Origin: Eledone cirrhosa
Taxonomy: Eukaryota
Direction of reading: 5' to 3'
DNA: 64,000 nt
Assembly: GCA_964016885.1 (NCBI GenBank)
Contig: OZ024743.1
Span: forward strand, 267,220,001-267,284,000
Of this stretch, positions 31,024-41,087 are shown piece after piece (the first letter of the stretch is position 1; each line of letters begins with the position of its first letter). The position numbers and the translations under genes are program-made. Under the pieces are notes generated by a model. That model saw nothing but the letters and a program-made list of their open reading frames with translations, did no database searches and was not told the DNA's origin.

Positions 31024-31212
31024 GACGAAGGAAATGTGGTAAGGAACCAGGTGGACCATGCAACAACGTACTCAATACTTAGGGTAGTAGAGTGGGTAAT
31101 AGGAACGAGTAGGACTGGACGGCTGAGCTCAAGCCGTTTCGACGGCTAATTCAGTCCAGAACTAGTCGTCGAAACGGCTTGAGCTCAGCCGTCGGGGTCC
31201 TACTCGTTCCTA
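31024..31212. mobile_element. Fold-back mini-element copy 1 (two inverted hammerhead 3' halves + ~75-bp extension)
   Basis: Arms 31100-31150/31161-31212; each strand reads GAAACGGCTTGAGCTCAGCCGTC; inside (TA)n. Confidence 0.85.
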
Positions 31213-31313
31213 TATATATATATATATATATATATATATATATGTATACTTATGTATATATATATATATATATATATATATATATATATATATATATATA
31301 TATATATATATAC

Positions 31314-32071
31314 ATTATTTGAAGCTCAGCATCGGCCCCATGCTCGGTGCTATGGGCTAGTTTTCTAGATGAGGTAAGTAGCCAAAACAGCGAGGCTCAC
31401 GTTCAATCGTCTATTTTCACTAATATACCACTCTGCATCTATATATATATCAAAATAACAGATTAAAGTTTAAGGAAAGAATCACTGCTTTCACCCTTAT
31501 ATACATATATATATATATATATATATATATATATATATATATATATATATATATATATATATATATATATATATATATATATATATATATATATATATAT
31601 ATATATATTTATATATATATATATTTATATATATATATATATATATATACAGTATATATGTATGTATATATATATATATATACCCACACACACACATTTA
31701 GGGAGTGTAACGTCATGTTACCTCTGGTTTATCAAAGTGACTACTCGATGCGTAGTTCCCCGTATTACTTTGGGGTTGTACTAAGCCGAGTGTAATATTA
31801 ATAAGTATGGGCGAGGTGTCAAGTCTTGATTAACTTTATTCAGGTGTGACGTGCATTCCGCGATTGATCAGCTTAATGTCTGATTCCTACCAATTGGCCC
31901 CGACTGTAGACTCAAAAGCTCATCACATATGAATAAACGAAATATATGATGCAGAGTGGTATTAGTGAAAATAGACGATTGGACGTGAGCCTGGCTGTTA
32001 CGGCTACTTACCTCATCTAAGAAACTAGCCGATACCACCGCGCATGAGGCCGATGGTGAGCTTCAAATAAT
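31314..32071. repeat. Pair of ~125-bp inverted repeats (31314-31440 and 31948-32071)
   Basis: ATTATTTGAAGCTCA...ACCACTCTGCATC versus GATGCAGAGTGGT...TGAGCTTCAAATAAT; both border (TA)n. Confidence 0.8.
31706..31927 (-). mobile_element. Possible short solo LTR
   Basis: TGT...ACA ends (minus TGTGATG...GTTACA), internal minus-strand AATAAA; no TSD seen. Confidence 0.3.
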
Positions 32072-32110
32072 ATATATATATATATATATATATATATATA
32101 TATATATATA

Positions 32111-32194
32111 TAATAAAGAATTTATATCTAGTAACATATATATACATACAATGTTGTATGTATATATATGTTACTAGATATAAATTCTTTATTA
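32111..32194. repeat. Perfect 41-bp-arm palindrome
   Basis: TAATAAAGAATTTATATCTAGTAACATATATATACATACAA-TG-TTGTATGTATATATATGTTACTAGATATAAATTCTTTATTA, abutting (TA)n. Confidence 0.9.
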
Positions 32195-32460
32195 TTATCT
32201 CCAAAATATTTGTCGAGCAATACTGGCCATGACTGCTGCTACTGTAGTAGGCTGGCCGTTGTCTTATTAACAACCCACTTTCCACCGATTGACCACGATG
32301 TCACGTGTTCGATTCTTTTTGAATTTGCCACGGACACAGAGGCAGTGATTTTCTCAATGGCTAGGAAGTAAGTCCACGCTTTGCTATTTCCTATTCACTG
32401 ATTTATTTTTTAATAAGCTTCCAGTGTCCTCGCTTTGCCTGGAAACTTATATGAGAATTG

Positions 32461-32542
32461 ACTTTCCTGATGACAGGATGTTTCTCCACACCTTCTTCGG
32501 AAGATGTATCTACTCCATTCCAGAAACTAATTAGTTGGAAGT
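32461..32542 (+). ncRNA. Type I hammerhead-ribozyme motif with canonical core and enlarged stem II
   Basis: actttc-CTGATGA-caggatg...cattcca-GAAAC-TAATTA-GTT-ggaagt; stem I 6 bp; palindromic AACTAATTAGTT stem III; paralogue at 12261-12342. Confidence 0.75.
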
Positions 32543-33270
32543 GATATTTTAGTAAGTAAGTTAATTTTATAATTTTCTTATCTTACGTCTCTTGTATATA
32601 TATATATATATATATATATATATATATATATATATATATATATATATATATATATATATATATATATATATACATGTATACGTATATATATAAAAATATA
32701 TACATATGTAATCCTGAATATATATATATATATAGCATAACAATAAATCGTTAAAGGTAATCCGATAAGAGTCTGTGAAAAATACTTATGGACAGTTTAA
32801 GCGTACGGTGCTGTGTAACTCAACAAGAGGTTTACGCTGGTGACGATTTTATGACTTCGCTTGTATTCCTATGTAAATATATCTTGGAGTAATAAAAAAG
32901 TGAAGAATTACATGGTTAACAGTAAAAACAAGGATATTTATTTACAGTCTTACAATTGTTTCCATGATAGAATTGTCTATACATTGCTAAATACTAGAGA
33001 CAGTAAAACTCAATTTACAATACATCTAAGTTAAATCATTTCACCAGAAACTATTAAGAAATATAAAATATATGCGTAACGGTAAACTTAAAAGTTTAAA
33101 TTATTACATCTATAATAGTATTAATGATAAATAAATAAAGGAAGGGGGACAGATGGAAATGAGAGAGAAAGAAAGAAAATGACGAAAAAAGGAAAGAAGA
33201 TATAGTTAGATGTATAACTGGCAACGTTACGAAATCAAACTATCACATCAAAATAAATATAATATTAATA

Positions 33271-33450
33271 ATAATTGTTTCTACTTTAGGCACAAGGCCA
33301 GCAATTACCTGGTTTCATTACTGGTACTTTATTTTGTCGACCCCGTAAGGATGAAAAGCAAATTCAACCTCGGCGGGATTTAAACTCAGACCGTAAAGGG
33401 ACGTAACTCTGCTGGAAAGCATGGCGTCCAACCCTCTACCGATACTGCCA
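33271..33450 (-). mobile_element. tRNA-derived SINE nested in the inverted pLTR
   Basis: Full family match; absent from the partner arm at ~35055-35065. Confidence 0.9.
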
Positions 33451-38160: not shown

Positions 38161-38258
38161 ATATATAAATACATATATATATATATATATATATATATAT
38201 ATATATATATATATATAGATAGATAGATAGATAGATAGATAGATAGATAGATAGATAT

Positions 38259-38452
38259 AACGAAGGAGTTGTGGTAAGGAACCAGATGGACTATAACGCA
38301 CCAGAGTACTCAATACTTAAGGTAGTAGACTGGCTAATAGGAAAATGTATCACCCCGACGGCAGAGCTCAAATCGTTTCGACGGCTATTTCTGGACCAGA
38401 AATAGCCGTCGAAACGGCTTGAGCTCTGCCGTCGGGGTCATACATGTTCCTA
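38259..38452. mobile_element. Fold-back mini-element copy 2
   Basis: Same family as 31024-31212; centre TTTCTGG-A-CCAGAAA; copy-specific variants present in both arms. Confidence 0.85.
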
Positions 38453-38625
38453 TATATATATATATATATATATATATATATAGTTCGGACTGGTAATGGT
38501 TAATACATATATATATATATGCATGCATCAGTGTGCGTGTTTGTAGTTTGTGTGTGTGTGCGTCTGTGTGGTGTGCTTATGGAAAATGCAAATTAAGATG
38601 ACAGATTAGAGGTCTGAAACATTAA

Positions 38626-38686
38626 ATTATTTACAATTGTTTCAACAGATTCCTCACCTCCTGTAAATATGTAGTCGTCAATAATA
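38626..38686 (-). ncRNA. Decayed hammerhead-like motif
   Basis: Minus strand tatta-TTGACGA-ctacatatt...aatctgtt-GAAAC-AATT-GTA-aataat. Confidence 0.4.
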
Positions 38687-38820
38687 GCATATCCTCATTT
38701 CTGTATTGGATTTCATGGGACATTTTGCTGACTTTGGTACATTTAATACATCTCAAGACATACATCGCTCTCTATGTGTGATAGGTTTAATATATATGGT
38801 TGGATTTAATATATATGTTT

Positions 38821-39036
38821 GGCTTGGCAGAATCGGTAGAGCATCGGACGACATGCTTAGCGCCAAAGAGTTACGACCATTTACATTCTGAGTTCAAATC
38901 CTGCCGAGCTTAGCTTTGCTTTTCCTTCTTACGGGGTCGAAAAAATAATGTACCATTAACGCACTGGGGTTCGATTTAATCGACTTTCCCCTTTCATTCA
39001 AATTGCTAGCCTTGTGCCAAAAGTAGAAACAATTAT
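38821..39036 (+). mobile_element. tRNA-derived SINE, longer variant
   Basis: TGGCAGAATCGG A box, GTTCAAATC B box, extra GGGGTTCGATTTAATCGACT segment, same tail. Confidence 0.88.
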
Positions 39037-40880
39037 TGTAATTAATATTCTAAACTTTCTTTGAATTAATCTTCTTTCCCAAATCATGCTCTGTGTCAAC
39101 CTGACTATAAATAACAATTTATAAGAGTCGTATCATTATCGCTTTCCCACCACCTCTAATAAGCTTTAAGCTCGTTACTACTATCGCCTCGTTTTATTCT
39201 TATGAACACTATTAGTGGGGCCGCATGAATAATCGGACCCATCTTTAATAATTTACTTTCGTAACTTATGGCTCCTTCACCACCAGTGTTGCTAAAAAAA
39301 AAGATAGAATTATTTAGTAGTACTGTAAATCGTAATTCCTGGAAAACGTGGCGGGAAATCAAGCCGCTTACGTAAACATTTGCTGGCACAAATCTCCATT
39401 TCATCCACTATATTTCATAGTATTTCATAGTTCTTTGTGTTGGTAATATTACACCCTAAACGTCTTTGCTGTTCTTCGGTTGGTAATGATTTTTTATCCC
39501 TCTTTCTACTTGAGTTCAATAAAATTGCATCAGTTAAGGACACATCTTAGATAAATCCAAAACTATAAAGTGCCTGCTCCCTGGCTGATAGAATCACCTC
39601 CTCTCCAATTACAAAGCCAACCTCCTTAGTATGATTAAACATTTCGGTATGTATTTTTCGTGTATAAACGCCATTGATGGAATTTGCTGATGCTAAGAGT
39701 CGAGATTTACACGAGTCTCAAAGTACATTGATTGAAACTGAGTGATGTGGGATGTTTGTTTCTATTAATCAATTGGGTTCTCTGAGGAAGGTATTTCTAC
39801 TCGTAGACACAGATTCATTCCAAGTAGATGCTTGTAGCTCTCATTAACGCATCTATGAATACCTAGAGGAATCGAAATATGATGCCTACCTCCTCCCTGT
39901 CAGATAACCATGGAATATTTCATAGTAATTGTTCCTAAGCTAACATATGTATTTTATACTTAGCGATATGTAATGTATAATCTAAATACCATCAACAGAC
40001 ACTCTGCATCGTGTAAATATTGTTATTTTCAATGTCCTCAAGATTTACAGACCACAACAATTTAAATTTGGAACTGAATACTATAACATGATTTATATCA
40101 TGTAAGTCATTGTATGATAGAGTTCTAACGCTTCTGCCGACTAAAAAACTTCTATTCGAAATTTGATTTAGACTAACTAAATAGAAAGATAACTAAGAAA
40201 ATAGACCTGGGACAGAAATGAAAGACTGAATTTAATCAAGCAATATATTACAAGCGAATAAAGTAAACTATACTAAAATATATAAAGAAAGGAAGACGAA
40301 ATAAAGTCAACTGCATTGTACGCAGTAACTATAAGATTATTATATAAAGAAATGACTTGAGAAAATAGAACGTAAAAACATTAAAAATGAACAAAGCCAT
40401 ACCTAACATTATTTGACTGGCAGCTATATCACATTAGGTTATTTTTCATTCCTTACATATTATTTCCCCCCAGAACAATGTATATGCATTTCATTTCCTC
40501 TTTATGAATTGTTCCATTATTATGGCAGAAATTTCCTATTTCCTCACACACTTTATGCGTTTCACTATAATTTCATCTATAAAAACAAATCTAAAAGAAA
40601 TCAACAGCTAACATTGTTTTATACAGACTTATTACACACGTACACATACATACGTGCATGTACACATATACAAACACACATGCATAAGTACATGTATATA
40701 TGCACACACATACACACGTATGTATATATATATATATATATATATATATACAAATGTATAAACGTATATAGTAAGCTAATTAAATACAAAGCATTGACAT
40801 GTGATTGAATATTATTTTAGATTTTGTATTTTGGTATTATTTTGAGCCAGTCATTTATTTAGAATTATATATATATATAT

Positions 40881-41087
40881 AACGAAGGACATGTGGTAAG
40901 GGACCAGATGGACAATAACGCACCGAAGTACTCGATACTTAGGGTAGTAGAGTGGGTAATAGGAACGAGTAGGACCCCGACGGCTGAGCTCAAGCCGTTT
41001 CGACGGCTAATACTGGACTAACATTTTAGTCCAGAATTAGCCGTCGAAACGGCTTGAGCTAAGCCGTCGGGGTCCTACTCGTTCCTA
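40881..41087. mobile_element. Fold-back mini-element copy 3
   Basis: Same family; longest arms, centre CTGGACTAA-CATT-TTAGTCCAG; inside (TA)n. Confidence 0.85.

Follow-up and report, generated by a model that had tools for sequence, protein, structure and literature searches.

Head-to-head hairpin stubs of a Hydra-clade Penelope-like element in Eledone cirrhosa: probable origin by two reverse transcriptions running off a capped RNA

Penelope-like elements (PLEs) typically insert with an inverted copy and with a tail at one side only, and how the inverted junction and the one-sided tail are formed is described in the literature as unsolved (Craig et al. 2021, PMC8557442). A published interpretation of palindromic PLE junctions invokes self-priming, with an antisense strand as the template (Arkhipova et al. 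2013, PMC3846280). In vitro, the PAc protein of the Poseidon PLE, a predicted dimer, cleaves both target strands and extends them, starting at two internal sites between which the tail is defined (Frangieh et al. 2024, PMC11167929). An Initiator-like motif is known in a PLE pseudo-long terminal repeat (pLTR; PMC3846280), Penelope has an internal promoter (PMC2377424), and hammerhead ribozymes with a U3-A8 core were described in the Cercyon PLEs of Schistosoma, with about 1,300 matches (Cervera and de la Pena 2014, PMC4209133). Here we analyze a 64,000-nucleotide stretch of the genome of Eledone cirrhosa (contig OZ024743.1, positions 267,220,001 to 267,284,000; "the window") that carries three short hairpins, and find that they are the shortest insertions of an abundant PLE of the Hydra clade. 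The sequences of the junctions suggest that each hairpin probably consists of two cDNAs, each reverse transcribed separately up to the 5' end of a capped RNA and then joined head-to-head.

The three copies, at 31025-31212, 38260-38452 and 40882-41087, have the layout that the original prediction gave them: an extension of 77–80 bp, then an inverted arm and an arm, flanked by (TA)n. Every arm contains a GAAA box and a GUC triplet, together with a stem III that is able to pair. Their centres differ, none of the three contains the CUGANGA half of a hammerhead, and an Rfam search returned no hammerhead among the matches listed (150 of 173). In the numbering of the parent element used below, the A of AGTCC is +1, the GAAA box lies at +19..22, the ribozyme cut follows +41, the outer ends of insertions lie at +61 and +144, and the ATG of the open reading frame (ORF) is at +232. 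With the extension termed the tail and the arms termed tailed or tailless, the copies resolve as follows.

31025..31101, minus strand: tail of copy 1, parent +62 to about +142, ending at putative priming site 1 beside (TA)n; in tandem parents it continues into the ORF
31102..31152, minus strand: tailed arm of copy 1, parent +7 to +59 (blastn to the parent unit, q7-144)
31153..31212, plus strand: tailless arm of copy 1, starting exactly at +1 and ending at putative priming site 2 (blastn q1-61)
38260..38396, minus strand: tail and tailed arm of copy 2 (to +2), with markers of subfamily A4
38396..38452, plus strand: tailless arm of copy 2, from +4 (blastn q4-61; junction overlap 1 nt)
40882..41019, minus strand: tail and tailed arm of copy 3 (through +1, then two more matching bases; blastn q1-144)
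41020..41027, no strand: centre of copy 3; the tailless arm starts C-A-T4, a minor class with one T above the parent
41028..41087, plus strand: tailless arm of copy 3, +1 to +61 (blastn q1-61)

The tailed arm of copy 1 comprises the 3' strand of stem II, GAAA, stem III, GUC and the 3' strand of stem I, and is the shorter of its two arms; the single clearly private change of this copy, in the tailed arm, is not mirrored in the other. The variants of copy 2 that had been considered private and mirrored are subfamily markers, because they are also carried by other sampled arms: among the analysed loci 219 arms have GAGCTCTGCC, and the combination GAGCTCTGCC...CATACAT is shared by 8 arms besides those of copy 2. 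Such stubs lack the sequence upstream of +1, where the promoter probably lies, and are predicted to be dead on arrival and incapable of self-cleavage.

The expectation that the hairpins arose by retrotransposition, and are not miniature inverted-repeat transposable elements (MITEs), was borne out by an intact longer PLE parent. It has the ORF and the 5' hammerhead half that were anticipated upstream, but its core reads UUGANAA and not CUGANGA. A parent with the CUGANGA box was considered and rejected: 36 matches lie upstream of the arm, and inspection of 30 of them revealed hairpin centres or parts of unrelated elements but no common parent. Two of the longer centres, when extended, gave 710 copies leading into a 3' region and a reverse transcriptase (RT)-endonuclease ORF, and tails without a following TA (1,121 matches) ran on into the ORF in 9 of 30 cases. 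A reading of the tail as the ORF start (MVHL...) is ruled out, the first in-frame ATG being that at +232. A tandem array (loci L231-L233) near 91.48 Mb of contig C1 has a unit of 3,542 bp, at 3,534-3,536 positions of which its units agree, and ends with a tail on one side and an inverted tailless copy on the other. Further tandem, partial-tandem or inverted copies are found at L181-L199; the full-length copy L183 also begins at +1, and in the short partial tandems L210, L211, L217 and L228 a new unit opens at +1 after roughly 100 nt of the ORF start. Copies range in a continuous length series from stubs up to the full PLE. In L233 (2171-5742; C1 ~91.489-91.493 Mb), 65 tandem copies of a 55-bp ORF piece lie between the array and its inverted end, representing either telomerase-like reiteration or later expansion. 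Contigs under a second organism label share the parent end region (L232:7300-8300), with the short tail/arm part over-represented.

The ORF encodes 717 amino acids, with YRDD at 348 and VIY...YIG at 591-608, corresponding to an RT and a GIY-YIG endonuclease. The predicted fold (pLDDT, the predicted local distance difference test score, 93) has TERT as its best match (E 1.6e-8), and 2,031 mostly unnamed relatives were found among 8,000 scored, the best at about 40% identity; a Pfam scan of the protein returned 0 families and a sequence search of the PDB 0 matches. A single ORF joining a telomerase-like RT to a GIY-YIG endonuclease, in copies that are tandem or partial-tandem with an inverted 5'-truncated copy and a one-sided tail, identifies an endonuclease-bearing (EN+) PLE. 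The assignment to the Hydra clade is by motifs, following the definition in section 11 of PMC8557442, with the alignment rows of its supplement compared by eye. The protein has RWR at 37 (RWK-like) and DKT at 117, no G-x-K-F/Y, and a linker with CNCPDRSIC at 572 (CxCX5C), CNLCSEE at 670 (CxxC) and CKH at 698 (CxH); CCHH is absent, with one Cys only between VIY and YIG, and insertion favors (TA)n. A C-terminal endonuclease, RWK-like, DKT, CxCx5C and CxxC/CxH motifs, lack of CCHH and a (TA)n target are likewise the features of the Hydra clade including Hydra-1_Obim, although Hydra-clade units are generally <3 kb and the unit here is 3.5 kb (PMC8557442). The labels Naiad and Neptune were dropped against this definition. 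The parent is not Hydra-1_Obim, because its DNA motifs were not found in the supplement of PMC8557442. No report of this family was found among the papers that the literature search listed, although supplements and repeat databases such as Repbase and Dfam, which lay outside that search, may contain it.

The family is very large. Exact genome matches number 28,297 for a 27-nt tail-junction motif, 26,989 for the tailless end and 55,009 for the arm core at +7, with 0 for the reversed controls; cross-capture (37/99 and 7/30) gives about 72,000-121,000 insertions, so that we estimate a family of some 10^5 insertions, with at least 28,297 copies. For closer analysis we used 99 of the first 100 tail-junction matches, 96 tailless ends located in the corresponding region of contig C1, and 67 hairpins from the less-biased sets, of 111 called. 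The independent origin proposed for each hairpin is upheld by 50 distinct centres in 60 hairpins, and many different centres were also present in 30 sequences fetched from a genome similarity search (2,822 candidates, 40 scored). Arms differ by 0.035 within a hairpin and by 0.041 between same-subfamily arms across copies (84 hairpins). A MITE, or a palindromic non-autonomous master element moving as a unit, would match the size, the hairpin shape, the TA flanks and the few centres that recur (up to 4/60), and the (TA)n on both sides masks any target-site duplication. However, such an origin is hardly credible given the diversity of centres, the sharing of recurring centres by several subfamilies, a tail that lies outside the repeat on one side so that the inverted repeats are not terminal on both, and the continuous length series up to the full PLE. 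MITE-like or SINE-like (short interspersed element-like) hairpins in repeat libraries can therefore be PLE stubs.

In long copies, stem I is followed by UUGANAA and the 5' strand of stem II, with 7,605 exact matches to this 5' half. Among 68 long ends that were not selected for the core, U4 is present in 64, G5 in 61 and A6, A8 and A9 in 67 each; U occupies position 3 in 57 ends and C in 8, while any base is tolerated at position 7 (A18/C22/T8/G20). With UUGANAA, GAAA and GUC, a free N7, G10.1-C11.1 and three stems, the sequence of the parent end region corresponds to a type I hammerhead with a U3-A8 core, for which self-cleavage is predicted; a three-way junction forms in 7 of 8 representative folds, with weak z-scores (-0.2 to -2.5). 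Cleaved templates have left no genomic trace, since 0 of 96 tailless arms start at the ribozyme cut (+42). A lineage with C3 opposite A8 (L100, L152, L193; about one fifth of the first 100 matches to the 5' half) is widely copied although its ribozyme is probably inactive. The Cercyon hammerheads show the same core covariation, and opposite-strand pairs 100-700 bp apart have been noted among them, but they are minimal dimeric motifs, whereas the parent here has a full stem III (PMC4209133). The Hydra hammerheads in File S2 of PMC8557442 have CUGANGA cores, in contrast to the U3-A8 core, long loop II and 6-7 bp stem III found here, and searches for CUGANGA only overlook the ribozyme of this family. 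Non-LTR retrozymes are defined as tandem units that each contain a complete hammerhead (10.64898/2026.07.22.740005); the stubs are instead inverted pairs with half ribozymes, and stubs of this kind are not described in the available text of that work or of PMC13282606.

On the outside, insertions end at either +61 or +144, fixed positions separated by 83 nt and each followed by (TA)n, and the inner ends of short arms meet a wall near +1. Of the 96 tailless ends, 65 stop at -7..+8, none at -46..-8 and 8 farther upstream; in paired arms, 103/134 stop at -6..+8. At the level of the genome, 55,009 exact arms at +7 compare with 7,605 that reach the 5' half. The original prediction placed the stop of cDNA synthesis at stem II, but most arms cross the 3' strand of this stem (+8..+18) and end within loop II at -7..+8, with a non-parental G before +1. 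A stall of the RT at RNA structure, whether stem II or a tertiary contact of loop II, on a long uncapped template would account for arm ends that cluster just upstream of GAAA, including the 20 of 134 paired arms within +9..+18; it is nevertheless very improbable, as the wall lies beyond the helix, in the loop, long copies cross the region without tailing off at -8..-46, and a position-specific G is not predicted. The parent reads TT/TC-AGT at +1, which we take to resemble the Initiator consensus, and an AT-rich 8-mer lies at -29..-31 of long ends.

The base before +1 provides a second indication that this position was an RNA end. The parental base, T or C, precedes +1 in 21,641 arms (76 T:24 C in the first 100, counted by hand), and a purine does so in 6,310 (87 G:13 A, counted likewise). 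At -5 the ratio is 9 G:60 A, a difference from -1 with a Fisher p of 8e-23. In 74 inspected arms, 34 G and 8 A are not readable from the opposite arm; the extra G is equally split between tailed and tailless arms (32 each), and it is found on both arms of L449, L452, L454 and L455, with spacers of 1-6 nt. An extra cap-derived G has been reported at full-length L1 insertions (PMC11702581), and a non-parental G before +1 is the signature that copying of a cap would be expected to leave; even if added by terminal transferase activity, it would mark the physical end of the RNA at +1. A cap-derived G at PLE inverted junctions is unreported in the papers that the literature search listed, with most subscription papers outside that search.

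One tailed and one tailless end are present in 66 of the 67 hairpins, and of the 96 tailless ends, 7 long ones of which were left out of this assessment, 79 have a partner starting at the tail end, 0 one starting at the tailless site and 10 none or another. The longer arm is the tailed one in 21 hairpins and the tailless one in 18, with 27 equal; 31 junctions overlap by 1-6 nt and 7 are blunt. Six insertions have a tail-side copy that ends before leaving the tail; five of these have a tailless partner and one (L102) a tailed partner. The partner extends past +1 in 5/6 long versus 0/57 short copies (p 8.5e-7); for 36 copies no partner was found, and the count misses long partners of L095 and L100 that are shown by blastn. 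After 12 of the 111 hairpins were dropped for a damaged core and 11 left unclassified, 84 of 88 pairs belong to the same subfamily, with 23% expected at random.

That a single cDNA, or an antisense transcript, folded back and primed itself, with the endonuclease trimming the second strand at +61, is both the published interpretation of head-to-head palindromes (PMC3846280) and close to the scheme first proposed for the window hairpins. It would explain the subfamily concordance, the coupling of long arms with long arms and the 1-6 nt overlaps at 31/67 junctions. We consider it unlikely, as the tailless arm should then never be the longer, yet it is in 18 of 39 asymmetric hairpins; nor can fold-back yield a tailless arm where the tailed side stopped in the tail and never reached the arm, or separate extra G's across a 1-nt spacer (L449, L452). 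The G occurs on tailless as often as on tailed arms, and an antisense template leaves a G before the sense +1 unexplained. Each end was likely primed separately, because fold-back of a +144 cDNA cannot yield the tail-internal stops and a +61 cDNA cannot yield a tail.

The two cDNAs could also have been copied from two RNA molecules, by two complexes or by a dimer holding two RNAs from the same locus, a variant that differs from the reading preferred here only in the same-RNA step and that we regard as possible, though clearly the less probable course. It would make strand displacement unnecessary and would account for mixed-subfamily pairs (4/88), for the chimeras L033 and L034 and for the scarcity of private mirrored variants. 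Independent RNAs, however, predict tail/tail and tailless/tailless pairs, of which 1/67 and 0/79 were observed, and long/short pairs, observed in 1/6 and 0/57. The tight coupling of long arms and of subfamilies therefore favors one RNA. In L032, L033, L034, L039, L040, L044, L045, L047, L054 and L448 an arm abuts an inverted or hairpin fragment of another element, the partners in L033 and L034 including ORF pieces of other PLE families; such chimeric arms suggest template jumps or two different RNAs.

Under the preferred reading of paired run-off transcription, the RNA would very probably start at the Initiator-like A(+1) inside hammerhead loop II, and because the start lies inside this loop the end-region copy at the mRNA 5' end would hold only the 3' half of the ribozyme. 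In all likelihood the endonuclease would nick both strands of the (TA)n target, each 3' end priming one cDNA, at +144 and +61. With rather less assurance, both cDNAs would usually be made on a single RNA and within one copy of its end region, where the enzyme that started downstream would displace the cDNA made upstream. The stubs would be run-off cDNAs of 60 and 140 nt primed in the 5' copy, and the long arms (~14%) would be primed in the 3' copy; the cDNA 3' ends would be joined bluntly, by 1-6 nt of microhomology or with untemplated bases. Strand displacement is required if one RNA is to be copied twice over +1..+61; to our knowledge the PLE RT has no RNase H.

Several observations weigh against this reading. 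We infer the RNA 5' end and its cap from DNA only, and for 30 of the 64 G's (and 2 A) the opposite arm could have served as template. Only 18/89 long ends have a good TATA-like 8-mer at -29, and a quarter to a third of arms reach 1-7 nt past +1, which added A's may explain in part. The A-T4 class (1,039 arms, the 30 of 30 inspected being short copies, preceding base G32/C25/A43), which includes window copy 3 with its C-A-T4 start, would call for a minor upstream start or slippage, and a second start at -4 with three T's shows no G excess. Eight of 68 long ends have C3 opposite A8, a core that is probably inactive. As to the use of one RNA, 4/88 pairs mix subfamilies, both ends carry a tail in L013 and L228 as well as in L102, and joins between arms and other PLE families occur (L033, L034). 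Mirrored private variants number 14, where permutation gives 2.3; after removal of 6 that are due to junction artefacts and 4 that reflect a subfamily polymorphism, only 4 true ones remain in 84 pairs, two of them at a CpG. Subfamily concordance could also result from subfamilies that were active at different times, and some arm asymmetries may have arisen after insertion because palindromes delete easily. Finally, sampling was concentrated in the first 23 Mb of a single contig, and very short arms are missed by the arm caller, which also halts early at mismatches.

Among published systems, EN+ PLE insertion units share the head-to-head inverted copy, the tail at one end, partial tandems, and a hammerhead and Initiator-like motif in the pLTR (Craig et al. 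2021, PMC8557442; PMC3846280). The tail is 83 nt here and 30-40 in those units, and, unlike them, most insertions here are stubs with a fixed inner wall and an extra G; the self-priming proposed in PMC3846280 is disfavored by the junction data. Poseidon PAc has, as here, two internal RT start sites near the ORF start that delimit the tail, cutting and extension of both strands and an uncleaved RNA template (PMC11167929). A difference is that each of the two start sites found here overlaps the target by TAT. Our data fit those in vitro results and extend them to the junction, which PMC11167929, in its available text, does not derive from two primings. The type of insertion has thus been published already; the mechanistic signature at its junctions was not found in the literature searched.

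In twin priming of L1, two target ends prime on one RNA and the products are joined by microhomology. The L1 cDNAs cover different parts of the RNA, whereas here they overlap over +1..+61 and have fixed start sites. Whether PLEs generally integrate by such two-ended target-primed reverse transcription, with two RT active sites that begin at two fixed positions of one capped sense RNA and overlapping copies joined at their 3' ends, we consider evenly balanced. If so, a single mechanism would account for head-to-head junctions, for tails on one side and for the great numbers of half-hammerhead stubs among the PLEs of animals, and would replace the self-priming model. The family offers some 10^5 natural insertion events and a near-identical tandem source with an open ORF, and the scheme predicts a cap at +1, two primings and one RNA.

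A second PLE-type stub family is present in the window.

11980-12197, 13900-14025 and 31443-31499: second stub family, tail + arm + arm

Among 35 arms of this family, 4 have G and 0 have A before their own Initiator-like A (TT-AGT), which agrees with the extra G of the first family; 19 are long copies with T, and 12 are shorter and uninformative. Near 12030-12180, both arms of the hairpin show a G ahead of the putative start, and a hammerhead-like core, CAGAAGA, lies just downstream of this start.

The remaining repeats of the window are the following.

35860-38054, 19042-23335, 32870-35461, 12566-13012 and 2352-2705: longer inverted insertions and fragments
821-1019, 5682-5882, 20640-20766, 33262-33460, 38820-38968, 41380-41568, 43431-43620 and 45209-45394: dispersed SINE-like repeat of about 190 bp, eight copies, 79-94% identity
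45400-49306 and 53993-58004: non-LTR retrotransposon, two copies 86% identical
51056-52821: further RT remnant
58584-63182: element with gag-like and endonuclease/RT regions
4483-5503: 27/32-bp minisatellite
24714-28819: degenerate AT-rich repeat array

Hydra-type ORF pieces of other families, at 30-50% identity (tblastn), lie in or near several of the longer inverted insertions, and a canonical CUGAAGA hammerhead-like motif is located near 35600-35635 on the minus strand.

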